The notes below the pieces were generated by a model that did no database searches, was not told where the DNA came from, and saw nothing but the letters and a program-made list of their open reading frames with translations. A program made the position numbers and the translations under genes. Shown here one piece after another: positions 8,915 to 56,063 of a stretch of 64,000 nt of DNA (position 1 is its first letter; every line of letters starts with the position of its first letter). The stretch is from positions 81,499 through 145,498 of the forward strand of contig CBDDCA010000002.1 in the NCBI GenBank assembly GCA_965226055.1, read 5' to 3'. This stretch comes from Spirochaetia bacterium. Its GTDB lineage: Bacteria; Spirochaetota; Spirochaetia; WTKD01; G963693115.

Positions 8915-9976
8915 ATGTTGAGAGATTGTATTGAAAGTATACTTGAACAAAAGAATATAAGTCTCGTTCAAGCAAAGGCTATTATGGATCAGATAGCAAG
9001 CGGTGCATTATCGCCTGAAGAAATAGCTATGTTTCTTACTGCTATGAGAATGAAGCAGGAAAGTGCAGATGAGATTGCAGGGGTAGTAATGAGTGCAAAA
9101 GAGCATGCTATCTCTTTGCCACTGCTAGCAAAATACGATACATTATGTGATATTGTAGGTACAGGTGGAGATGGAAGTAATACTATCAATATTTCTACTC
9201 TTAGTGGTTTTATTGCAGCAGGGGCAGGAGCGAAGGTTGCAAAGCATGGAAACAGAGCAGTATCTTCAAAATGTGGAAGTGCAGATGTACTTGAAGCTCT
9301 TGATGTAAATATTCAGGCATCAAAAGAAACAGTAGCACATATGATTGATAAGGCAGGTATGGGGTTTATGTTTGCTCCTCTGTATCATCCAGCAATGAAA
9401 TATGTTGCTCCTGTTCGTAAAGCATTAAAGATACGTACTTTGTTTAATATATTAGGGCCACTTATCAACCCTGCATCTGTTCCAAATATACTTTTAGGAG
9501 TATACAGTCGTGAAAAAATGGAGCTTATGGCACATGCTCTCCTCCGTTTACATACTGTTCATGCAATGGTGGTATGGTCTCATGACAATACCGATGAAAT
9601 AAGTGTGAGTGCAGACACAGAAATCATGGAAGTAAAAAATCTTGAAATAAAACGCTATACTATTCAGCCAAAAGAGTATGGATTTCATTATCAAAAAGAA
9701 AGTGATATACAAAAAGTACAGCAGGAAATACAAGGAGGAAGTGCTACCGATAATGCACAAAAAATAGTACAGGTACTGCAACAAAAGAGTACAGGTGTAG
9801 TAAGAGATATTGGTATAATGAATGCAGCAGCACTGTTGTATGTCTCAGGGCTGTGTTCTTCTATTGAAGAAGGCATTGACAAAGCAAGCGAATCTATTGA
9901 TAGCGGAAAAGCCTTGCAATGTTTAGAGAGCATGCGGATGGTGAGTAAAAGCGATATGCAAAGTAATGCTATTTGA
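8915..9976 (+). CDS. trpD: Anthranilate phosphoribosyltransferase
   Basis: DIVGTGGDG, NIST, KHGNRAVSSKCGSAD, RTLFNILGPLINP. Confidence 0.97.
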   Translation: MLRDCIESILEQKNISLVQAKAIMDQIASGALSPEEIAMFLTAMRMKQESADEIAGVVMSAKEHAISLPLLAKYDTLCDIVGTGGDGSNTINISTLSGFIAAGAGAKVAKHGNRAVSSKCGSADVLEALDVNIQASKETVAHMIDKAGMGFMFAPLYHPAMKYVAPVRKALKIRTLFNILGPLINPASVPNILLGVYSREKMELMAHALLRLHTVHAMVVWSHDNTDEISVSADTEIMEVKNLEIKRYTIQPKEYGFHYQKESDIQKVQQEIQGGSATDNAQKIVQVLQQKSTGVVRDIGIMNAAALLYVSGLCSSIEEGIDKASESIDSGKALQCLESMRMVSKSDMQSNAI

Positions 9977-10028
9977 AAAAATACTATTTTTGTACTGTTA
10001 ATACTACAATATCCTGTATACTTAAATA

Positions 10029-10763
10029 ATGAATACTACTGTTTCTCCAATAAGCATTTCAACATTACTTTTATTGTTTATTCCTATAAGTATATCACTT
10101 GCTATTCTCTTTCGTAAAAAAGTTGCATTTGGTAATACGCTCTATGCGTTTTTACGTATGATAGTACAGCTTATCATTGTTGGGTTTACATTAAACTTTA
10201 TTTTTGCTTCAAATAATGGGTTTTTTGTGATAATAGTACTATTAGTCATGATATTGGTTTCTAGTTGGATATCCATCAGAACTCTTCATAAAGGGAAAAA
10301 GCATATATTTCCCTCTGCTTTTTTAGCTATTCTTATTGGTGGTGGGTTTCACGTATTTTTTATGACTCAGGTAATTATACGCATTCGTCCTTGGTTTTAT
10401 CCTACCTCAATGATACCCTTATCAGGAATGATATTTTCAAGTTCATTAAATGGTATCAGTCTTTTTATTGAAAGATACCAAAGAGAGAGAAATAATGGTG
10501 TTTTTGTACATCAAGCTGAAAAATTTGCATTTCATGCTGCGCTTATTCCTGCAATAAATAATTTTTTTGCGGTGGGGCTAGTATCATTTCCTGGACTTAT
10601 GACAGGACAAATATTGTCAGGCATATCTCCTTTTGTTGCAGTAAGGTATCAGATTGTAATACTTACAATGATTGTAAGCTCACAGATTCTTGTCATATAC
10701 TTATTTTCACGGTTTATTAGAAAAAAACATGAACTATGTTTGTACACAGAGGATAGAGTGTAG
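10029..10763 (+). CDS. UPF0014 / FetB-like ABC-type membrane permease
   Basis: Multi-TM protein with RMIVQL, IPLSGMI and VGLVSFPGLMTGQILSG.SP..AVRYQI. Confidence 0.85.
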   Translation: MNTTVSPISISTLLLLFIPISISLAILFRKKVAFGNTLYAFLRMIVQLIIVGFTLNFIFASNNGFFVIIVLLVMILVSSWISIRTLHKGKKHIFPSAFLAILIGGGFHVFFMTQVIIRIRPWFYPTSMIPLSGMIFSSSLNGISLFIERYQRERNNGVFVHQAEKFAFHAALIPAINNFFAVGLVSFPGLMTGQILSGISPFVAVRYQIVILTMIVSSQILVIYLFSRFIRKKHELCLYTEDRV

Positions 10764-21405: not shown

Positions 21406-21505
21406 ATATTATAAGTGTAGTATAATACCAGTTTGGAGTGTTGGGGGGAGGCTTTTGTTATTAAATGATTGTGTAAATAATTTAATAATGTGGTATAATG
21501 AGAAT

Positions 21506-22879
21506 ATGGAAGAAGAAAAATTTGATTATAAAGTTGAAAATATTCTTGAATATATTACAGCAGTGAGTGAAATTTATGATGATCTTGCTACTGATGATGA
21601 TGAAAAGAATGATAAATATAAAAAAATGCTATTTTTCAGAGGGCATGGAAGTTCAGAATATAAACTCTTACCAAGTCTTTTTAGAGAAAAGAGTAAGTCA
21701 AGAGGTGAGAAAAGAATTCTTGAGGATTATAAGCATCATTTACCAAGAAATATAAACATTAAAGGTTTAGATTTTGATAAAAATAGAGCAGAAATTTTAG
21801 CAGAGATGCAACATTATGGTATTCCTACACGGTTGTTAGATTGGTCACTATCTCCTATCATAGCTCTTTATTTCGCTTTAAAAGGCAGTCATGAAAAAAA
21901 AGAAAAAGGAAAAGATGCTTGTGTGTGGATATTTAATCCTTGGAAGTATTATGATAAAACTATAGGTGAGCAAATTAGGATTATGCAAGTTAGTTTAAAA
22001 GAAGAACTTTTTCGTATAATATATACAAAAAGACTTTATTCTGATTATAGAAGTGATATAGAGGAATGGAAGAAGGCATCTGATCATATAAAAAAAGCAT
22101 TAATTGATAAGCTGAAGGATAAAGATAAACAGGAAATAAAAAAAATTCAACAGAAGATAGAATCTGCTTGTAAAAAATTAATCAAAGAAAAAGAAATAGG
22201 TAAAAAAACATTTTTTAAGAATATAGATAAAAACAAGAAAAGAGAAGATGATGTTAAGAAGTTTATACAAGATGGAATGGATAAAAAAAGGGAGGGTAAT
22301 AAAAAAGAATTAAAACATATTAAAGAATATGTAAAATCCCTTGGTATTAAAGAACAAATAATAAATGATGTATTTACTAAATTAGAAGGAGAAATAGAAA
22401 AGAATTATGAACAGATGGACATTGATGTAAATAATATTCTAACTGCTTACTTACATTCTTATTCTTATTCTATATCTTCATTTTCATTAGGACATGCTCT
22501 ATTATCTAGTAACAGCAGGTTCAATGTTTATTACACCTTATTATCAATGCGAGGAGCAATAGAAAGAATTCCTGAAGAAAAAGTATTTCTTAAGATCCTT
22601 GAATACCCAATAGGATATATTCCATCATACCAAAATGATAGATTAATACATCAGGCATCAGTATTTACAATACACGGAACAGAAATAGATCTTCAGTTGA
22701 ATAAACAAAAAGAGAACTATCAATATTTGCGGAAGATAACTATTCCTGGAGCATTAAAAACAGAGATATTAAAAACATTGCATATGCTCTTTATAAATGA
22801 TTATACTATTTTTCCTGATTTTGAAGGGATGAGTAATCAATTTGAAATAACAAATGGCTTATTCCGTTATCGTGTATGA
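21506..22879 (+). CDS. FRG-domain protein with a long charged helical insertion
   Basis: FFRGH, LLPSLFR, MQHYGIPTRLLDWS.SP..ALYFA, NDRLIHQASVFTIHG, IFPDFEG; ATG 21506 preferred over TTG 21455. Confidence 0.88.
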   Translation: MEEEKFDYKVENILEYITAVSEIYDDLATDDDEKNDKYKKMLFFRGHGSSEYKLLPSLFREKSKSRGEKRILEDYKHHLPRNINIKGLDFDKNRAEILAEMQHYGIPTRLLDWSLSPIIALYFALKGSHEKKEKGKDACVWIFNPWKYYDKTIGEQIRIMQVSLKEELFRIIYTKRLYSDYRSDIEEWKKASDHIKKALIDKLKDKDKQEIKKIQQKIESACKKLIKEKEIGKKTFFKNIDKNKKREDDVKKFIQDGMDKKREGNKKELKHIKEYVKSLGIKEQIINDVFTKLEGEIEKNYEQMDIDVNNILTAYLHSYSYSISSFSLGHALLSSNSRFNVYYTLLSMRGAIERIPEEKVFLKILEYPIGYIPSYQNDRLIHQASVFTIHGTEIDLQLNKQKENYQYLRKITIPGALKTEILKTLHMLFINDYTIFPDFEGMSNQFEITNGLFRYRV

Positions 22880-22982
22880 ATGCAAAGAAGGAGCGGAAGA
22901 TATAAAAAAATCATTTATTTTTTCTTTATATTTAGATATTAATTAGAATTTTATACTATAATTTTCTTTTATTTAGTATCTC

Positions 22983-23024
22983 CTATCATGGATTTTTGAG
23001 GGCACACGAGATGGTAAAACTCCA
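22983..23024. mobile_element. Orphan terminal fragment of an IS related to the IS481-family element at 38364-39577
   Basis: ctatcatggatttttgagggcacacgagatggtaaaactcca aligns with 39535-39577 and its last 14 nt are the reverse complement of 38364-38377. Confidence 0.8.
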
Positions 23025-23042
23025 TTCCCGTGAAATATTCAC

Positions 23043-23071
23043 TTGACATATATAGTGTATATTGATACTAT
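23043..23071 (+). promoter_or_regulatory. Sigma70 promoter of the peptide-ThiF-ThiF-UvrA operon
   Basis: TTGACA-N17-TACTAT with extended -10 TG; TAAGGAG RBS before ATG 23106. Confidence 0.8.
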
Positions 23072-23105
23072 ATATAATATAACAAATATAATTAAGGAGT
23101 AATAA

Positions 23106-23309
23106 ATGATAAAGCATAAAAATACCATAGATTTTAATTTTGAAATTCTATCAAAGGCAAAGGAACATGATGCAAGATATTCTTATACTTGTAGCGGAGG
23201 TGTCAGCTATTGTTGTACAAGAACTTGTAGGGGTAATGATCATGTGAGTAATAGCGAAGATAAGTGGGCGACTTACTATAACTTAAATGCAGGAGTTGTA
23301 CAATATTAA
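23106..23309 (+). CDS. Cys-rich 67-aa peptide, putative RiPP precursor
   Basis: Strong promoter and RBS; central YSYTCSGGVSYCCTRTCRG; overlaps the first ThiF gene. Confidence 0.8.
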   Translation: MIKHKNTIDFNFEILSKAKEHDARYSYTCSGGVSYCCTRTCRGNDHVSNSEDKWATYYNLNAGVVQY

Positions 23310-24423
23310 CCTAGATAAAATATATCATCTACGTAATAGCGTAGATGTTTATATTTTTAATAAAAGTATACTTCACTTTTATTTTATCAATACAAGAAAG
23401 GAAGTAAGAATTCAGGTATCTCATGATATAATATCTTTTATTTCCCAATTAGATGGAAAGAAGACAGTAAGAGAGTGCTTATCACAGTTTTCATTAACTG
23501 ATGTTGATGAAAAAAATATAAGTGATTTTTTGCTATTTTTAGAAAAAGAAAATATTATAGCATGTGAATATGAGGATATTTTATTACCTGACCAGATTGA
23601 TAGATATACAAGACAAATTACATACATTGAAGATAGTATTTTAGGCAGTAAAGGACAAGCATTACAACAACAGCTTATTAGTAAAAAAGTTTTAATCTTT
23701 GGAGTAGGTTCGGTTGGTAGTGCTATTGCTATTTTTCTTGCTCGTATAGGAATAAAAAATTTTGTTTTAATTGATAAAGATACTCTTGAGTATGGGGATA
23801 GAGTAAGACATCTCTTTTATGAAGAAAAATATGTTCATTCATCAAAATGCAACAGTGTAAAAAAATATTTACAACAGATAGATAGTGATATACAAGTTAC
23901 TCCTCATCAGACATTGATACAACCTGATACAGATATAGAAAATTTTTTTGATGGCGTAGATTTTGTTATAAACACTATGTCTACCCCGTATATTCTTTAT
24001 ACTAGTTTGAAAATAGAAAAAGAATGCTTAAAAAGAAAAATTCCTCTGTATGTAGCTGGTGGTTTTGATGGGCACTTAGGATCGACAGGTGAATTAATTT
24101 TTCCTCCCCTTACTCCTTGTGTCTCATGTTATATGAATTATTTTTCATCAGCACTTAAAGATTGGAAGCCTAAATATAATGTTGAAGCCATTGATACAAG
24201 AAACATGAAAAATGCAAATTATGAAACTGGTGGGCTTGCTGGATTATCAATGTTATCTGCTTCGCTAGCAAGTGTAACTATTGTAAATTTTATGGTAGGT
24301 AACTATCAAAGTATTTTTCGAGGTGAATATGATTTTGAGAATATAAAAATTGATTATATTCAAATGAAAAAAAATAAAGATTGTAAAATATGCAACAAAT
24401 ATATAAACTCAGAAGTTCAATAG
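23287..24423 (+). CDS. ThiF/E1-like protein 1 with N-terminal RRE-like (winged-helix) domain
   Basis: DRYTRQI, GVGSVG, LIDKD, Zn motifs PCVSC and CKIC; N-terminal LDGKKTV.E pattern typical of PqqD-like extensions. Confidence 0.88.
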   Translation: MQELYNINLDKIYHLRNSVDVYIFNKSILHFYFINTRKEVRIQVSHDIISFISQLDGKKTVRECLSQFSLTDVDEKNISDFLLFLEKENIIACEYEDILLPDQIDRYTRQITYIEDSILGSKGQALQQQLISKKVLIFGVGSVGSAIAIFLARIGIKNFVLIDKDTLEYGDRVRHLFYEEKYVHSSKCNSVKKYLQQIDSDIQVTPHQTLIQPDTDIENFFDGVDFVINTMSTPYILYTSLKIEKECLKRKIPLYVAGGFDGHLGSTGELIFPPLTPCVSCYMNYFSSALKDWKPKYNVEAIDTRNMKNANYETGGLAGLSMLSASLASVTIVNFMVGNYQSIFRGEYDFENIKIDYIQMKKNKDCKICNKYINSEVQ

Positions 24424-25484
24424 CGCTTACCTATAGAAATATTGATCTTGATAAAATAGTCATTGATTTCTTTTTTACTGATATAAGAAAGAATATTTCC
24501 ATAGAGTTTTCTAGTAAAAAAATTTATGATATATTGTTTTTGTTTGATGGAAAAACAACTATTCAAGATATAATTCAGAAAATATCTATAACTAATATAG
24601 AAGCCTTTTTAAAGGTAATTAAAATGCTCAATGAGCAATGTATATTATTAGAAGTAGATACAGAATATAATGAATATTTTAGAGATAACTTTAAAGTATT
24701 TCATTTTTTAGAAAATTATTATTCAAAGATTAGTAGAGTAAACGAAGTATTTTTAAAAATTAAAAATAGCACAGTGATGATTATTGGGTTAGGAGCAGTT
24801 GGATCATTTGTTGCTGATATTCTTCTTGCTAATGGCGTAGAGAATTTCATATTAGTTGATAATGATACTGTTGCTATTTCTAATCTCCCAAGACAGTCAT
24901 TTTTTGAAAAAGATATTGGTAAGTATAAAATAGATTGTATAGCAGAAAAATTTATGAGTATCAACAGTAATGTAAAAATAGAAAAAATACATGCTTTTTT
25001 AGATAAAGATTTTTTTACACAGCATAATTTTAACAAGATAGACTTAATTATTAATTGTGCAGATAAGCCATCTGTTGATACTAACTCTCTTATAATAGGA
25101 GAGTATGGAATAAAAAATAATATACCTCATATTATTGGAGGAGGATATAATTTTCATATTTCCCTCATTGCTCAAACCGTAATTCCTTTTAAGACAGCTT
25201 GTGCTAAATGTCTTGATACTCAGCTAAAAGAGATAAATAGTTTTAAGGACACTGATATGAAAAGATTGATAAGAGAAGAACGTAAAATAGGAAGTTTTTT
25301 GCCATTATGTAATATTGCCTCTAGTATTATTTCAATGGAAAGTATAAAAATATTATCTGATTTAGATAAGTATCTTGGGACAGTAAATACACGGAAAGAG
25401 TTTAATGCTGAAACATTACAGATAATTGATAGGATGAAATTTAAAAAGGATCCTAATTGTTCATGGTGTTCAAATAATGGATAA
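24390..25484 (+). CDS. ThiF/E1-like adenylyltransferase 2 with N-terminal RRE-like domain
   Basis: GLGAVG, VDNDTVAISNLPRQ, INCADKP, Zn motifs CAKC and CSWC; FDGKTTIQDI in the N-domain. Confidence 0.9.
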   Translation: MQQIYKLRSSIALTYRNIDLDKIVIDFFFTDIRKNISIEFSSKKIYDILFLFDGKTTIQDIIQKISITNIEAFLKVIKMLNEQCILLEVDTEYNEYFRDNFKVFHFLENYYSKISRVNEVFLKIKNSTVMIIGLGAVGSFVADILLANGVENFILVDNDTVAISNLPRQSFFEKDIGKYKIDCIAEKFMSINSNVKIEKIHAFLDKDFFTQHNFNKIDLIINCADKPSVDTNSLIIGEYGIKNNIPHIIGGGYNFHISLIAQTVIPFKTACAKCLDTQLKEINSFKDTDMKRLIREERKIGSFLPLCNIASSIISMESIKILSDLDKYLGTVNTRKEFNAETLQIIDRMKFKKDPNCSWCSNNG

Positions 25485-27699
25485 TACAAATATTACATAT
25501 TCTAATATACTTACTAATAATCTTAAAGGAATAGATGTAACTATTGCCAAGAATAAAATAACTTGTTTTTATGGAAAGAGTGGTTCAGGAAAGAGTTCAA
25601 TAGCATTTAATACAATTAATGCTATTTCAGAGTATGAATATGATAAGCTTCATAATAAAGAAGGGAGTAATTATTCTTTTGTCGTTTCGGATTACAATAA
25701 TATTATTCCATCGGTAGCAATTAGACAAATTAATAAAAATAATAATAGTCTTTCAACTATATATAGTTTTACATATATATCATCTTGCTTAAAAAAAATT
25801 TTCTCATATTACTCTAATATGAAATCTACAAATTTTTCACTCAATAATCTCTATAACTTATGTATTCACTGTAAAGGAATTGGGCATACATACACCCCTA
25901 ATATTGAATACATCCTTGATAGGAAAAAGCCATTGGTACATCAGCCTATTAAGTATCATAATAAGTCTCGTCAGGATATATTTGATCAAAAATTGTTAAA
26001 GTTTTGTGCATTAAAAAATATTGATATACACAGTACTTTTGATGAATTAAGTACTGCAGAGAAAGATATGATTCTATATGGTGCTTCTGATCAAAAAATT
26101 GAATTATCCTATCAGGTATATACTAAAGCACATAAAAAAAGAACAAGAAAGGTAAAAGAGCATTATATAGGAATACTACAAGAAATTGAGCAAATACTTG
26201 CTAGTAAGAAAGATATAAAAGAAGAATTTTTGAAACAACAGCCTTGTATGTATTGTAAAGGAGCATTATTTAAAGAAAAAATAAGAGATATTCCTATTTT
26301 GAATAGTACAATAGGAGAGATTATGCTTCTTGATATTACTGGGTTATTGTCTTTTATTACGAGTAATAAGAGTGGTATTAAAGGGAGTGAGATAAGTACT
26401 AGTTTTAATTCATTGATGAATTTTTTACAAATTATGGTGAACAATAGCTTAGGACATTTATATTTAACTAGGAATATACCTTCTTTATCTGGGGGAGAGT
26501 TTCAAAAAATTCATTTTTGCTCAATACTCAACTCCTCGCTTTCAGGAATTTTGTTTGTAGGAGATGAAATTTCTTCTAATTTACATGTGAGTGAGTATGA
26601 AAATATATGGAATCAGATTCAAAACATAAAATCAAAAGGGAATACTATCATTTTAGTAGAACACGAAGATTACTTTATTCAAAGAAGTGATATTAAAGTA
26701 GAAGTTGGTCCAAAGGGAGGGGTAGATGGAGGAAGAATAGTTTCAATAAATTCATACAAGAAAAGTCTTGATAGCAGTTTTAGAAATAAGATTACGGCTG
26801 AAACATTTATAAAAATAGAAGATATCAATATCAATAACATTACCCACATGACAGTCAATATTGCAAAAAATTGTCTAAATTGTATTTGTGGAATATCTGG
26901 TTCTGGAAAAAGCTCTATTTCAAGATACTTACATGATAGGTATCCAAATTTTATTTATATAAATCAAAAACCAATTAATTCAATAAGCAAATCTATCATT
27001 GCAAGTTTTTCAGGTATCTTTACCGATATTAGAGAGTTATATTCTCAAGAGAATAATATTGATATGAGTTATTTTACATTTAATTCAGAAAATGGGCAAT
27101 GTCATACTTGTAAAGGGAAAGGGCTTATTGAGGAAAAAATTAGTTTTTCAAATGATGTCATATCATATATGTGTCCTAGTTGTAATGGTGTGAGATTTAA
27201 TAATGATATTTTGCAGTATACATTTAAGGATCATAGTATATATGAGTTATTAAATTTGACAATAGATGAAATAATTTATAGTAATCTTTTTGAAGAGAGT
27301 ACCTCTTTAACAAATAAACTAGCATTGTTTGCTACTTTAGGATTAGGATATTTAACATTATTTCGCTCTGTAAAAAGTATTTCAGGCGGTGAATCACAGC
27401 GGCTTAAAATGATTAAGTATATCAATACCAATATTGAAAATAAATATTTTATCTTTGATGAGCCATTTACGGGAGTAGATAAAAGTAATTTTAGAAATAT
27501 ATTACAGCTGTTTGATGAGTTGATTAGAAAATCAGCAACAATTATTATTGTAGAACATAAATTAGAAGCAATTAAGAATAGTGATCACATAATAGAACTT
27601 GACAGAAATAAAAAAAATGAAGGAAATATAGTATTTGAGGGAAATATAGAACAGATGAAAAAGAGTAAAAAATCTATTATTAAAAATTATTTATTGTAA
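25477..27699 (+). CDS. UvrA-like twin-ABC ATPase, short class II (UvrA2/DrrC-like) form
   Basis: NNLKGIDV, two Walker A (GKSGSGKSS, GISGSGKSS), LSGGE/ISGGESQR, DE and VEH motifs, four CxxCxG pairs; only 740 aa. Confidence 0.88.
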   Translation: MDNTNITYSNILTNNLKGIDVTIAKNKITCFYGKSGSGKSSIAFNTINAISEYEYDKLHNKEGSNYSFVVSDYNNIIPSVAIRQINKNNNSLSTIYSFTYISSCLKKIFSYYSNMKSTNFSLNNLYNLCIHCKGIGHTYTPNIEYILDRKKPLVHQPIKYHNKSRQDIFDQKLLKFCALKNIDIHSTFDELSTAEKDMILYGASDQKIELSYQVYTKAHKKRTRKVKEHYIGILQEIEQILASKKDIKEEFLKQQPCMYCKGALFKEKIRDIPILNSTIGEIMLLDITGLLSFITSNKSGIKGSEISTSFNSLMNFLQIMVNNSLGHLYLTRNIPSLSGGEFQKIHFCSILNSSLSGILFVGDEISSNLHVSEYENIWNQIQNIKSKGNTIILVEHEDYFIQRSDIKVEVGPKGGVDGGRIVSINSYKKSLDSSFRNKITAETFIKIEDININNITHMTVNIAKNCLNCICGISGSGKSSISRYLHDRYPNFIYINQKPINSISKSIIASFSGIFTDIRELYSQENNIDMSYFTFNSENGQCHTCKGKGLIEEKISFSNDVISYMCPSCNGVRFNNDILQYTFKDHSIYELLNLTIDEIIYSNLFEESTSLTNKLALFATLGLGYLTLFRSVKSISGGESQRLKMIKYINTNIENKYFIFDEPFTGVDKSNFRNILQLFDELIRKSATIIIVEHKLEAIKNSDHIIELDRNKKNEGNIVFEGNIEQMKKSKKSIIKNYLL

Positions 27700-27786
27700 T
27701 ATAATAGAAAATATAGATGCTTATATAACTTTATTCCCCCACCCAAACTAAACAATAACGCCATAATACACTATAATATAAAATAA

Positions 27787-49988: not shown

Positions 49989-52900
49989 CTAATACCAACT
50001 AGGAGTACCTCCAGCACCCTTAAACATGTTAGCCTTAGAAGTAACTGCTTTCACAGGAGTTTCCCAACTTCCTAATGTTTGATTAAATGCACTAGCATTT
50101 TCAAACATACTTGTAAAATTTGTTACTTTAGCAAGACCATTATTTTTACCCCAATTATCAATATCTTGATTAAATTTGCTTGCTTCTTCAAACATCTCAT
50201 CCATACGAATAACTTTACTTGTATCCCAATCAGCTATATCTTTATTAAAAACAGCTGCATCCTGAAACATCCGAAACATAGTAGTAACTTTACTTGTATC
50301 CCAGCCTCCTATATCTTGATTAAATGAACTTGCCTCATTAAACATATTATCCATAATAGTAACACCTGAAGTATCCCAACTACCAATATCCTTATTAAAT
50401 GCTTTTGTATTCTTAAACATCCCTGACATACTAACTACACTACTAGTATCCCAATTACCAATATCCTGATTAAAATTAGTGGCTCCCGAAAACATCTGAC
50501 CCATATTTTTTACTGCACTTACATTCCAATTACCTATATCTTGATTAAATGAACTTGCATCACTAAACATACTTAACATATTGGTAACCTTATTTACATT
50601 CCAATACGAAATATCCCCATTAAATTTTGTCAAACCTTTAAACACTGCTTTCATATCAGTAACATTACTTGTGTCCCATCCACTAATATCCCCATTAAAA
50701 TCTGTATGAGCAGAAAAGATACCATTAAACAAATCACCCATATCAGTAACTCCACTTACATCAATAACATTCAAATCTGCATTATTTCCTTGTGTAGTAA
50801 TTTCAGTATTTATAGCAGCTTTTAATTCATTAATAGTAGTAGGGCGATGTTTTACAACAGAAACAACCACTAAAACAGTATGTGATCTTTTATCATCAGT
50901 ATAAGTATGTATATTATTCTTACTTGAATCTTGACTTGTAAACTGTACTGTATATTTTTGTTTTACTTTCTTTGTAGGAGTGCCTGATATTTTTCCTGTT
51001 GCAGAATCAAAAGTAAGTCCTGTATCAGAAGCAAAAGTAGTAGGATTGATAGCAAAAGTACCTGTAATACTAGGACTTTTAGTAAAAGTAAGAGCAGTAA
51101 TAGAACTATTTTTTTCTGCAGAAACAAGAGTCCTATTAGGAGTAATACTAAAATACCAAGAAGGAAGTACTGTCATTGTTATCCCTTTGAATATATCCGT
51201 AGTATCCGTAGAACGCATAACACTCCAATTCTCAAGATTTTGATCAAACGCAGTAGCACCATTAAACATATTATGCATAGTAGTAACTTTCTTTACATCC
51301 CAACTTGATATATCTTGATTAAACTTTGTAGCACCTTTGAACATACGAGATATAGTAGTAGCATTTCCTGTTTTCCAATTTGATATGTCTTGATTAAACG
51401 CAGTAGCTCCTTCAAATATCTGGTTCATTCTAACACCGCTAGAAACATCCCAATTACTCACATCCTGATTAAAAGCAGAAGCATTTTGAAATACCCCTGT
51501 CATAAGAGATACTTTACTGGTATTCCATCCACTAACATCACCGTTAAAACTGGTAGCATCCCTAAACAGTAAAAACATATTAGTAACCTTACTGGTATCC
51601 CATTTAGACACATCACCATTAAAAGTAGCATTATCCTTAAACAACTCACTCATATCAGTAATTCTACTGGTATCTATCACATTAAGATTAGCAGTGTTTC
51701 CTTGTGCAGTAATCTCAGTAGCAATAGCAGTTTGTAATTCTGATTTATTAGCAGGCTTATGTTTATAATCACTCGAAACAGAAATAGTTATTGTTCTATC
51801 AGAATCAGTATACTCATGGATAACATTCCCATCAGCATCTTTACTAGTAAAGGTTATAGTATAAGAAGTACTGGTTGTTACATTAACAGCAGTACCTGAA
51901 ATAGTACCAGTAGTAGTATCAAAAGACAATCCTGTATTAGTTATATCTGGTGTAATACTAAAACTTCCTGCTATAGTAGGTTTTTTAGTCAGTAATACTC
52001 TCTCATTACTTACAAGAGGAAAGTGCATATACGCAGTAAGAGTAGTTTTGTTAGTAGTGACACTAAAATACCAAGTAGGAAGTGTTACTACCCCAGAATC
52101 ACTAAACATATCAATTTTTGCAACACTCTTTTTCACATTCCAAGTCTCAAGATTTTGATTAAATGCAGTAGCTCCCTTAAACATATTTGTCATAGCAGTA
52201 ACTTTACTTACGCTCCAACTTGAAATATCCTGATTAAAAGCAACCGCATCCTCAAACATACCTCTCATAACAGTAACATTTGCGGTGTTCCAGCTCCCTA
52301 TATTTTGATTAAAGTTTGTAGCACCCGCAAACATACTGCCCATAAAAGTAACAGAACCTATACTCCAATTCCCTATATTCTGATTAAATGCAGTAGCTTC
52401 ATTAAACATTTTTGACATAGCAGTAACTTCACTTGTATCCCAATTCCCTATATCCTGATTAAATGCAGTAGCTCCCTTAAACATTTTTAACATATCAGTA
52501 ACTTCACTTGTGTCCCAATTCCCTATATCTTGATTAAAAGCAACAGCATCCTCAAACATACTGCTCATAGTAGATACTGCACTTGTGTCCCAATTCCCTA
52601 TATCCTGATTAAATACACTTGCTCCTTTGAACATAGATTCCATAGTAATAAGAACATTAAATCCTGGAGTACTCCCTAAGTTCTCACCTATTTTCCAAGT
52701 GGTAATATCCCCATCAAACGCTACCGCATCAGTAAACATCTCATTAAATCGTGAAACTTTAGAGACATCCCAGTTACTTAAAGATTGATTAAAAGCAGAA
52801 GCACCACTAAACATTTTACTCATATTTTGGACATTCCCTGTTTTCCAACTCCCAATATTTTGATTAAAAGCAGTAGCTCCATAAAACATACTGCTCATAT

Positions 52901-55900
52901 TAGTTACTGCGCTCACATCCCAATTACGTATATCCCCATTAAATACAGTATTATTATGAAACATATTTTTCATAGAAGTAACCGCAGAAGTGTCCCATTG
53001 AGATATATCCCCATTAAAAGCATTCAGACCCGTAATAGATACAAACAAAAGATTCATATCAGTAATAGCACTTGTATCAATGCCATTTAAGTTTGCATTT
53101 AACACATTATTGCTACTATCTTTATCATTTGTTTTAGTTATTTCCTTGATTGCCTCAATCAATTTTAATCGTGTAGTAGGTTTATGACTATAATCAATAG
53201 TAATAGTAACTGTGTTACTTCTATCACTATCTACATAGGTATGAGCAGGCGAAGTACTCGAAAATTGTACTGTATAAGCCTTATTAGATACTATTTTATT
53301 CGGAGTTCCTGATATTTTCCCTGTTGCAGTATCAAACTGTAAACCCGTATCAGTAGTAAAAGTAGTAGGAGTTATCTTAAATGTACCAGCTATATCAGGT
53401 GATGTAGTAAAAGTAATTTCTTTTGATTTAGGCAATGTACTAAAAACAGTATGGGTAATACTATGAGTACTTGTAGTAATACTAAAATACCATGTAGGAA
53501 GTGTCACTACTTTCGTGTTAGCAAACATATCAGTTTTTGTGATACTACTACTGCCTAGATGATCTTTCCAATCTTCTAAATCTTGAGCAAACTTAGTAGC
53601 TCCCTTAAACATATTACTCATAACTGTAACACTATCAACAGCCCATCCTGAAATATCCTGATTGAATGCAGTAGCTCCTTCAAACATAGATGACATACCG
53701 ACAACATTACTCACATTCCATTGTGACAAATTACCATTAAACGCAGTAGTACCCTTAAACATACCTCGCATATCACGAACTGCAGAAGTGTCCCAACTTG
53801 AAACATCACCATTAAACCCAGATAATTTATGATCAGAAATAAATAAATTATTCATATCATCAACACCACTGGTATCAATACTATTTAAGTCTGCATCAAG
53901 AACATCATTACTATTATCATTGTCATTTGTTTTTGTAAGTTCTTGTACCGCCAATATGAGACTCCTTCGTGAAGTAGGAGTATGAGTATACCCACTTATA
54001 ATGGTAAGATAAAACTCTTTTGTAACTGTCTTAGTGCCAGTAAAAGTAAGCGTATATTTCTTTTTAGACAACACTTTAGTAATAGTACCTGATATTCCTC
54101 CTGTAGAGCTATCAAAGGTCATACCTGTATCAGTAGTTATATTAGGTGATATTTGATATGTACCTTTCATACTATATGTTTTTACTGCTTCATTTTCTAC
54201 TACAAACGTGGCAGATTTTGTTGTAAGTTTATTCAATACAAAAGGGCCATCAACAACAGTAATATCTTTACTTTTTTGATACACTACTGAAATATCATAT
54301 TTCCAAGAGGGTAAATTAGCACTGGTTATCTTAGTAGCATTCTTAAATATATCAGTAGTAACAATAGCTTTATCACCAAAATGATCCTTCCAATCTTCTA
54401 AGTCTACAGAAAATGCCACTGCATCCAAAAACATACGTGACACATTCTCTACTCTATCTACCGCCCAAGTCGATATATTTTGATTAAATGCATCCGCACT
54501 CTCAAACAGAGACTGCATATAACGAGCATTACTTACATTCCATGAGGATATATCTTGATTAAAACTACCTGCTCCCTTAAACATACTACTAAAATTAGTT
54601 ACTTTTCCTACTTTCCAACTTGATATATCGCCATTAAACTTTGTTGCGCCTGAGAACATAGCTGACATATCAGTGACATTGCTTACATCCCAATTTGATA
54701 TATCACCATTAAAATTACTAAAAAGGCTATCTGAAAAAAGATCGCTCATATCCGTAATATTACTGGTATCAATACCAGTTAAATCAGGATCGTTTACATC
54801 AGCATTGCCATCACCATCAGTATCTACCAATGATCGTATCAATTTCAACAATCCTGATTTTGATTTAGGAGCAGTAGTGGAATCTATGAGAGTAATTGAA
54901 AATTTTACAACTCTGTTTCTATTAGCAGAATTATTAAAATCACCTGTACCTGTAAAAGTAGCAGTAATCTCTACTGCACCAGAAGTTACTGATTTTGTAG
55001 CTCCTTTTTGTGCTGATATTGTTCCTGTAGCATCATCAAATGTTATTCCTACAGGCAAAGTACTTTTACTAGAATCTATTGTGTAAGTACCAGTAATAAA
55101 CGAAGGATATTTTTTTATAGCTACACTAAATGCTTCTCCTACTAGCTTTGTGATAACAGTAGTACCAAAAGAAACAGTACCTGTGTACCATCCTGGCAAA
55201 GATTGTTTGTTAGCACATACTTGAGTAACAGTAGAATCTAAACAAGATCCAGCAAACATAGTTTCTTTATCTGTTTTTTCCATTTCTAATAGTTTCTTTA
55301 CAGAATTGAGAGACATATCCCACGTATCTAAAGACTGATTGAAACTTTTAGCATTTTTGAACATATTCTTAAACGCTACTGACTGTACTTTTTTTACATT
55401 CCATTTAGAAATATTCTGATTAAATATACTCGCCCCTTCAAACATACTCGTCATATCAGTGACTTTTTCTGTCTTCCAGTTTGATATATCGCTATTAAAC
55501 TTTGCTGCACTCTTAAACATAGAAGACATATCAGTGACTTTCTCTGTCTTCCACTTTGATATATCGCTATTAAACTTTGCTGCACTCTTAAACATAGAGG
55601 ACATATCAGTGACTTTCTCTGTTTTCCAGTTTGATATATCGCTATTAAAATTTGTTGCACTCGTAAACATAGAAGACATATCAGTGACTTTCTCTGTATT
55701 CCACTTTGATATATCACCATTAAACTTTGTTGCTCCTTCAAACATACCTGACATATCAGTAACTTTACTGGTATTCCACTTTGATATATCATAATCGGAA
55801 TTAGGATATTTCTTAAATAAATCACTCATATCAGTAATGTTACTTGTATCTATATCATTAAGATTTACTTTCTCTTTTGAATTCTTAAACCTACTAGCAA

Positions 55901-56063
55901 GTAAGCTGTCTAACTCCGATCGTGTAGAAGGGACAGTATTAACACTAGGCAGTACAGTGTTTTCATCATTGCTTGACGGAATATCTTCTGCACAACTAAA
56001 TACTAACAATGTAGTAAACATAACTAAAAAATAAAACATAAAATATGAATTTTTTGTTTTCAT
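49989..56063 (-). CDS. 2024-aa surface lipoprotein: six DUF285 (BspA-like) repeat blocks alternating with five He_PIG/Ig-like domains
   Basis: Lipobox LVFSC; 25-aa repeats FN.DIS.W.TS.VTDM..MF; spacer motif G(L/I/M).FD..TG.IS occurs five times; AGGAG RBS. Confidence 0.92.
55452..55790. repeat. Near-identical 75-bp tandem repeats encoding DUF285 units
   Basis: catatcagt(g/a)acttt...tttgatatatc recurs at 75-nt spacing about 4.5 times. Confidence 0.85.

Follow-up and report, generated by a model that had tools for sequence, protein, structure and literature searches.

A conserved cassette of a cysteine-rich peptide and two MccB/PaaA-like ThiF enzymes, frequently accompanied by a UvrA-like protein

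ThiF-like enzymes are increasingly yielding new peptide chemistry, and a different linkage has come from each of the few that have been characterised. In the microcin C pathway of Escherichia coli, a peptide clamp and a ThiF adenylation domain carrying two CxxC zinc sites are joined in MccB, whose target is the C-terminal carboxylate of a ribosomal peptide. PaaA, from the pantocin A pathway, activates the Glu side chains of a Glu-Glu-Asn core. Two further enzymes from streptococci, GrcB and IndF, are described as activating a carboxylate with ATP before it is captured within the peptide, yielding a thiolactone and a Trp-to-C-terminus indolylamide, respectively (PMC12150305; PMC12250964). Here we analyse a stretch of 64,000 nucleotides from a Spirochaetia bacterium (assembly GCA_965226055.1, contig CBDDCA010000002.1; the whole stretch is called the window hereafter), in which a gene for a 67-residue Cys-rich peptide is followed by two ThiF genes (T1 and T2) and a gene for a UvrA-like double ABC ATPase (U). 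The peptide and the enzyme pair form one conserved unit, and the enzymes are of the peptide-clamp adenylating kind. Judging from sequences, models and analogy, there is about an even chance that the four genes are a self-contained maturation cassette for a ribosomal peptide, in which C-terminal adenylation would lead to an intracellular, DNA-linked and possibly defensive product.

T1 (378 aa, 23287-24423) and T2 (364 aa, 24390-25484) were identified from their open reading frames (ORFs) and Pfam matches, supplemented by structure alignment for T1 and profile alignment for T2. Their scores against the Pfam ThiF model (PF00899) are 113.1 bits (1.5e-32) and 134.1 bits (5.9e-39), respectively, with a cut-off of 28.1, which confirms the two ThiF/E1-like genes proposed in the original prediction, a first reading of the letters made without database searches. 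The same model matches all 49 of 49 T1 relatives. None of the four cassette proteins scores above an NCBIfam equivalog cut-off; the best ThiF-enzyme scores are 84.6 and 91.6 bits against 275 for TIGR02356, and the others also fall far below their cut-offs. Among solved structures, the closest relative of both enzymes is MccB (1.4e-17 and 2.2e-26), and PaaA, which shares their architecture, matches as well (6e-9).

The structural model of T1 (predicted local distance difference test score, pLDDT, 87.1) was aligned by Foldseek with MccB over 368-373 columns and with PaaA over 360, whereas the alignments with MoeB and ThiF span about 278. Because the former are full-length and the latter cover the adenylation domain only, the N-terminal ~100 residues constitute a peptide clamp. 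The profiles of T1 and T2 align over 364 columns, N-domain included, at only 21% identity, which points to an old duplication kept as a fixed pair. The original prediction had placed an RRE, the recognition element of ribosomally synthesised and post-translationally modified peptide (RiPP) pathways, on both enzymes. This is upheld by the full-length agreement of the T1 model with MccB and PaaA and by the alignment of the T2 N-domain to that of T1, with weak sequence support from the PqqD model, which matches only 4 of 49 T1 relatives. Taken from models and sequences, T1 and T2 are thus MccB/PaaA-like enzymes with an N-terminal RRE-like peptide clamp.

Catalytic motifs are conserved in both enzyme families. 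T2 retains the canonical set, comprising GxGxxG (G133, G135, G138), SNLPRQ, the NCAD Asp225 and two CxxC. The T1 family has Arg-His instead of Arg-Gln and carries the invariant motifs DEPYIG, GGFDAHL and LKDWKP. A complex prediction for T1, T2 and the peptide scored 0.00 and is evidence for neither side.

Comparison with the described pathways sets the cassette apart from each of them. MccB is a single homodimeric enzyme whose substrate has 7 aa with Asn at the end and whose gene is accompanied by others for export and immunity, whereas the cassette has two diverged enzymes at ~20% identity to MccB, a ~65-aa Cys-rich peptide (67 aa in the window) ending in Gln-Tyr, and no exporter; genes of the MccC-F type are found neither in the cassette nor in its relatives. 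The cassette peptide also contains no Glu-Glu-Asn motif, and neither an oxygenase, as PaaB would be, nor an exporter, as PaaC would be, is linked to it. Both absences, of the MccA C-terminal Asn and of the PaaP core, had been correctly read from the letters. The 'ocin-ThiF-like' proteins of thiazole/oxazole-modified microcin and thiopeptide clusters differ as well: they have a partner YcaO cyclodehydratase, whereas the window cassette has no YcaO and reaches 27.6 bits against 187.65 for TIGR03603. Clusters of GrcB and IndF, compared with the cassette by description, contain one ThiF enzyme, a protease and a transporter and have short variable cores; the cassette peptide, with four invariant Cys and one Trp, would offer nucleophiles like those used by GrcB and IndF.

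The peptide gene (23106-23309), called as an ORF, encodes a leader strand (IDFNFEIL), a core (CSGGVSYCCTRTC), Trp54 and the tail NLNAG-VVQY; the sequence and the three segments quoted from it in the original prediction read as claimed. A single-sequence search with the window peptide recovered only itself. Three loci reached via T1 carry a homologous peptide at the same position, and a profile built from the four peptides retrieved 489 clusters at 90% identity, all annotated 'hypothetical' and with no Pfam domain. An exhaustive HMMER scan with the peptide profile gave 47 representatives at 50% identity, of which almost all are short.

Three features mark the family: a fixed Cx6CCx3C core, a single invariant Trp and a C-terminus that always reads G-x-[VIL]-Q-Y. 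The alignment of 133 members shows a conserved pattern of the leader Phe, Tyr-Ser/Thr-x-x-Cys-Ser-Gly, Ser-x-Cys-Cys-Thr-Arg-x-Cys, Trp and Gly-x-[Val/Ile/Leu]-Gln-Tyr; full conservation, or conservation of at least 90%, is seen at F12, Y25, C29, S30, G31, S34, C36, C37, T38, R39, C41, W54, G63, Q66 and Y67. G63 is invariant, preceded by A, G or S, and always followed by four residues. Four subtypes can be recognised. Peptides with the tail NAG-V-x-QY co-occur with U, those with GG/SG-VIQY co-occur with U and a JAB gene, and those with GG-[Q/E]-[V/I]-QY and a CS[A/R]D core are found without U. In the fourth subtype (Cedecea, Pantoea, Brenneria and others) neither the core Asp nor the tail Glu is present, but the G-x-x-Q-Y tail, both enzymes with the T1 DEPYIG motif intact, and U are retained. 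No acidic side chain is common to all peptide subfamilies.

AlphaFold2, run with the 133-sequence alignment, gave the peptide a pLDDT of 61.7 and a predicted template modelling score (pTM) of 0.25, with only two short helices and no confident fold. Proteins of the ubiquitin-like or ThiS/MoaD type are beta-grasp folds ending in Gly-Gly, whereas this peptide has no predicted fold, ends in Gln-Tyr and holds its small-Gly pair four residues inside. As in RiPP precursors, it is a small ORF kept beside modifying enzymes (55 loci) and has a conserved leader Phe, core and tail. In its sequence features the peptide is therefore precursor-like, and it belongs to a large family that has no name.

The neighbourhood of the peptide was examined through a pattern scan of one genome per species, which returned 55 distinct loci and found the three T1-derived loci again. 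These loci are distributed over Pseudomonadota, Bacteroidota, Bacillota, Fusobacteriota, Cyanobacteriota, Spirochaetota, Desulfobacterota, Patescibacteria and Actinomycetota. The peptide is followed by T1 in 54 of the 55 loci and by T2 in 52, every miss being at a contig end; one locus is divergent, with the enzymes on the opposite strand from the peptide. A divergent peptide subtype adds five loci in which the gene order is unchanged. The expectation that the peptide ORF would be conserved beside homologous ThiF pairs was borne out. In the Nostoc locus L041 the T2 match falls into two overlapping pieces (9333-9815 and 9791-10357), which points to a frameshift or an error in assembly.

U is present in 33 loci, clearly absent from 12 with at least 2.3 kb of downstream flank, and not assessable in 10. 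It follows T2 in most loci, lies divergently upstream in six Pseudomonas loci and stands behind a tetratricopeptide repeat (TPR) gene in one. The core unit is thus the peptide with two ThiF genes, and the UvrA-like gene is a frequent accessory; of the four-gene unit originally proposed, the peptide and both ThiF genes hold, but the UvrA-like gene does not belong to it as a fixed member. A RadC-like JAB gene (PF04002, 1.5e-30) lies between the peptide and T1 in 12 loci of Bacillota and Actinomycetota, whose peptides end in GG-VIQY or SG-VIQY. The absence of YcaO, dehydrogenase, protease and exporter genes noted in the original prediction holds for the window cassette, and that of an exporter holds for its relatives too, but these 12 loci do have a peptidase gene, of the RadC/JAB type. 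Among 499 neighbouring ORFs, no recurrent family was found besides JAB and the TPR protein, no other family occurring in more than four loci, and the ~55 loci have no exporter, leader peptidase or membrane protein for immunity in common. The TPR protein, a membrane protein of ~360 aa, is encoded after T2 in L025 (4376-5476) and L044 (10432-11508) and between T2 and U in L038; it may be an alternative accessory in a subtype that is usually without U.

In the window, the four cassette genes all lie on the forward strand with intact frames and overlap successively by 23, 34 and 8 nt, so that the operon, with its coordinates and overlaps, was recovered from the ORFs exactly as first described. A Shine-Dalgarno sequence, AAGGAG (23094-23099), is read 6 nt ahead of the peptide ATG, in agreement with the predicted ribosome-binding site. 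Further upstream, a promoter-like site (23043-23071) is made up of TTGACA (23043-23048), a 17-nt spacer, TG and TACTAT, with 10 of 12 matches. The near-consensus promoter claimed for this position is present, but it does not exceed chance: the AT-rich stretch holds 42 such sites against 40.4 expected from shuffles, that is, no enrichment, and the promoter is plausible and nothing beyond that because the site is equally frequent in shuffled sequence.

A hairpin between precursor and enzyme genes is the usual means of making more precursor than enzyme. Such a structure, with a 9-bp stem followed by a T-run, lies at 23326-23357, 17 nt 3' of the peptide stop and within the 5' end of T1, and is a candidate attenuator. 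Judged against 30 mononucleotide shuffles, 39 of 52 loci have a hairpin with a z-score below -2 in the 100-nt stretch that surrounds the peptide stop; the median z is -4.2.

The fourth protein, U (740 aa, 25477-27699), was identified from its ORF, its Pfam ABC and UvrA DNA-binding domains and the model NF001503 (3.6e-121, below the equivalog cut-off). The genome encodes its own canonical UvrA elsewhere, a protein of 947 aa with the UvrB-binding UvrA_inter domain, and aligning the two leaves a gap of ~150 residues in U opposite this domain. U retains the DNA-binding insertion domain together with the zinc modules and both ATPase modules; PF17755 is found in the window U, in three scanned relatives and in the own UvrA, whereas PF17760 occurs only in the last of these. 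U therefore resembles class II UvrA proteins such as Deinococcus radiodurans UvrA2 and the drug-resistance UvrA-like proteins, and by domain content it has the class II architecture, a UvrA fold without the UvrB-binding domain, as originally predicted. Its structure matches include the UvrA2-type entries 2vf7 and 7sh1, and it is no closer to solved class II proteins (5e-68 and 7.5e-68) than to canonical UvrA (1.3e-82). We know of no case, and came across none, in which a class II UvrA is linked to ThiF enzymes and a ribosomal peptide.

Many loci carry recognisable defence genes within ~6 kb of the cassette. RADAR-like deaminase-ATPase pairs lie directly upstream in Cetobacterium (L010, 2872-7922) and Pectobacterium (L012, 2727-7609), each consisting of a ~800-aa protein and a ~870-aa protein with an adenosine-deaminase domain. 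Other neighbours are BREX (L013 and plasmid pXBB1-8), CBASS (L026), GmrSD (L013, L021 and L044), type I restriction-modification (L044 and L048), AbiEii (L008), AbiH (L033) and FRG-domain genes (L024 and the window). Against PADLOC-DB 2.0, the matches of T1 and T2 are confined to the E1 part of CBASS E1-E2 profiles (down to 5.6e-19), the first half of U is related to mad3 (1.7e-40), the peptide has no match, and the cassette fits no one system's profiles full-length. Integrases, transposases, relaxases and toxin-antitoxin pairs are also common nearby, and the cassette occurs on mobilizable plasmids, where RefSeq names the copies hypothetical, ThiF, ThiF and ABC. Phage carriage is rare: no match was found in 50,697 phage records, and an IMG/VR scan returned 2 loci with a peptide homologue (contigs L092 and L093). 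Many metagenome contigs with the peptide are only 5-6 kb long, and no circular overlap or terminal inverted repeats were found in 13 such short contigs.

In the maturation scheme that we favour, the leader strand, with its hydrophobic-x-F-x-hydrophobic pattern, would dock on a clamp of a T1-T2 heterodimer, and ATP-dependent adenylation would activate a carboxylate, most likely the alpha-carboxylate of the C-terminal Tyr, since the C-terminus is the only carboxylate kept in every peptide subtype. The acyl-adenylate could then react with a residue of the same peptide, in its invariant core or tail: by analogy with GrcB, a Cys thiol would give a macrothiolactone, and by analogy with IndF, the invariant Trp would give an indolylamide. 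The second ThiF enzyme may perform a second activation. Because no exporter or leader peptidase travels with the genes, the product probably remains inside the cell, and the frequent UvrA-like partner suggests DNA as its place of action, where U would clear the product from host DNA or work together with it. The setting in defence islands and among mobile elements further suggests a role in conflict with phages or mobile elements.

Several observations sit uneasily with this scheme. Two enzymes look active and only one carboxylate is universal, a mismatch that the scheme does not account for. The 12 loci clearly without U imply that DNA is possibly not central. The conservation of the peptide core across phyla goes far beyond that of usual antibiotic peptide cores and would suit a cofactor-like or protein-like role too, and the invariant small-Gly pair, which lies four residues from the end, and the JAB gene of 12 loci suit a ubiquitin-like or sulfur-carrier scheme that begins with removal of the tail. 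The association with defence islands is descriptive and has no background control. Finally, the window copy may be partly inactive, given the loss of an Asp from T1 and the departure of U from a C-terminal motif, both described below.

The cassette might also be an intracellular conflict system of a new kind, in which the E1-like pair would charge the C-terminus of the peptide, an invariant Cys of the peptide itself would capture it and so store the energy as a thioester, and the reactive peptide would be discharged onto, or clamp around, foreign DNA or a DNA-bound protein, with U guiding it or stripping it from host DNA. We regard this possibility as unlikely, though still a serious candidate. 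Were it true, the system would be a peptide-sized, E2-free analogue of ubiquitin tagging for defence.

Class II UvrA proteins are known as self-resistance determinants against DNA-binding drugs, as in DrrC and Ecm16. On this precedent the product might be a secreted antibiotic or bacteriocin, which would leave the cell by unlinked transporters or lysis and damage or bind the DNA of competitors, with U conferring self-resistance. The class II architecture of U and its matches to 2vf7 and 7sh1 speak for it, as do the order of peptide, hairpin and enzymes, typical of bacteriocin loci, the occurrence on mobilizable plasmids, and a feature search that places the peptide nearest to bacteriocin precursor clusters, albeit with weak scores (0.84-0.86). 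This is nevertheless rather improbable: conserved genes for export, leader cleavage or membrane-bound immunity are lacking from the ~55 loci, the core hardly varies over nine phyla, unlike arms-race antibiotics, U is missing from 12 loci, and its similarity to class II proteins is no greater than to canonical UvrA.

A further reading concerns the window copy of the cassette. Between ~21.5 and ~27.7 kb of the window, the GC content drops from 36-40% to 26-29%. A sister genome of the same genus (G001) has a cassette-free version of the site, with flanks 88-96% identical up to the borders and flanking genes at 97-98% protein identity; nucleotide similarity between the two ends at 22877 and restarts at 27740. 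The GC profile and this comparison delimit a cassette-sized insert of ~4.9 kb and 26-29% GC (22878-27739, forward strand) between an FRG-domain gene and argS. In the sister genome the interval from an EF-G-like gene to argS is 2.5 kb long and encloses an FRG homologue and an unrelated 224-aa membrane ORF. T1 was found in none of the 40 relatives searched, and no flanking direct or inverted repeats or att-like sites stood out around the window cassette. The window cassette was acquired horizontally.

The spot between the EF-G-like gene and argS is itself variable (window 21455-22879; L077 640-2825). An FRG-domain gene (PADLOC PDC-S15; 21455-22879, forward strand, in the window) is present in both genomes, and the gene after it differs, being the 224-aa membrane ORF, which has no Pfam match, in the sister genome and the four-gene cassette in the window. 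As FRG is kept in G001 without the cassette, it belongs to the site, and the four genes entered as a unit. The original prediction had raised a defence role on account of the neighbouring FRG gene; such a role would rest on the general defence-island setting and not on FRG, which is not part of the unit. Elsewhere in the window, the longest ORF encodes 2024 aa (49989-56063, reverse strand).

Within its family the acquired copy is an outlier. The window T1 reads NTMSTPYIL in place of the N-x-x-DEPYIG of 48 of 48 aligned relatives, with the substitutions D232S, E233T and G237L, and differs at 5 of 47 conserved columns, more than any other of the 49 sequences; T2 has only 2 conservative deviations. 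The window T1 keeps the nucleotide-binding glycines and the Arg-His variant. Ser232, which replaces the Asp of all 48 relatives, aligns with the Asp of the MccB SADHP motif, which we take, from its role in MoeB, ThiF and MccB, to be the Mg-binding or catalytic Asp. With this active-site Asp lost, the window copy may perform only part of the chemistry. The window peptide carries Val, Tyr, Arg and Gly in the core where most members have Arg, Asp, Thr and Arg, and the C-terminal ~40 residues of U read ELDRNKKN-EGN against the G-P-x-x-G ... G-G motif of its relatives and of the own UvrA. A linked loss of the T1 Asp and the peptide core Asp, as if T1 acted on the latter, was considered and rejected: five loci with Asp-less peptides keep DEPYIG.

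The window cassette might then be a decaying passenger, transferred in, partly inactive and of no consequence to its host. The most deviant T1 of 49, with its altered DEPYIG, the peptide core at odds with the family at four mostly kept positions, the departure of U from its C-terminal GP..GG motif and the absence of the cassette from the 40 relatives are all in keeping with decay. We consider this quite improbable, as the four reading frames are intact, the overlaps are preserved, T2 is hardly altered, adaptation to 27% GC or a change of function could account for the divergence, and the same DNA is present in several runs of one study.

JAB-processed carriers and bacterial ubiquitin-like (Ubl) systems, among them QbsE/QbsD/QbsC, CysO/Mec+/MoeZ, Bil and CBASS Cap2, share with the cassette an E1-like domain, JAB (in 12 loci here) and a small-Gly pair near the C-terminus. 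A miniature tag or sulfur carrier of this sort, modelled on the Qbs and CysO proteins, whose tail would be cut after the invariant Gly (by JAB where present) and whose Gly would be adenylated and then transferred to a protein or nucleic acid target or converted to a thiocarboxylate, is the most doubtful of the readings: E1-superfamily enzymes, G63 after A/G/S with a tail of always four residues, the RadC-like JAB gene between peptide and T1, and a product acting intracellularly from loci in defence islands would suit it, but unlike in those systems the peptide shows no beta-grasp or other fold (pTM 0.25, 133 sequences), the tail is itself invariant (Q66, Y67), which sets it apart from the disposable tails of Ubl proteins, genes for an E2, a sulfurtransferase or a rhodanese are not linked, the JAB is of RadC type and missing from most loci, the window included, and the enzyme clamps resemble those of leader-binding MccB and PaaA and not Ubl-binding surfaces.

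No description of the cassette was found in the open literature searched, which did not extend to Burroughs, Iyer and Aravind 2009 (E1-like superfamily) or to the supplement of PMC12150305 (Figure S1, further candidate ThiF clusters). Literature text on the peptide motifs or on ThiF, UvrA and RiPP together led to unrelated papers only, and ThiF reviews and a lactic-acid-bacteria paper make no mention of UvrA, excinuclease, JAB, tandem or 'two ThiF'. Among the ThiF peptide pathways in this literature, none matches, and the cluster is unlike characterised pathways, as had been proposed; taken as a whole, the interpretation of the original prediction is partly supported.

Returning to the favoured reading, a peptide matured by C-terminal adenylation, the cassette belongs to ThiF-dependent peptide modification, and there is a real chance that its biology, a peptide-based, DNA-linked defence, is new in kind. 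The family is distinctive in being large and spread over nine phyla, with an unusually conserved substrate, an obligate enzyme pair, a DNA-repair-type ATPase in place of a transporter, and defence neighbours. Either outcome would be new, whether a macrocyclic DNA-directed peptide or a peptide-based defence or tagging system, and the conserved C-terminal motif could serve as a tag for the enzymatic C-terminal activation of proteins.

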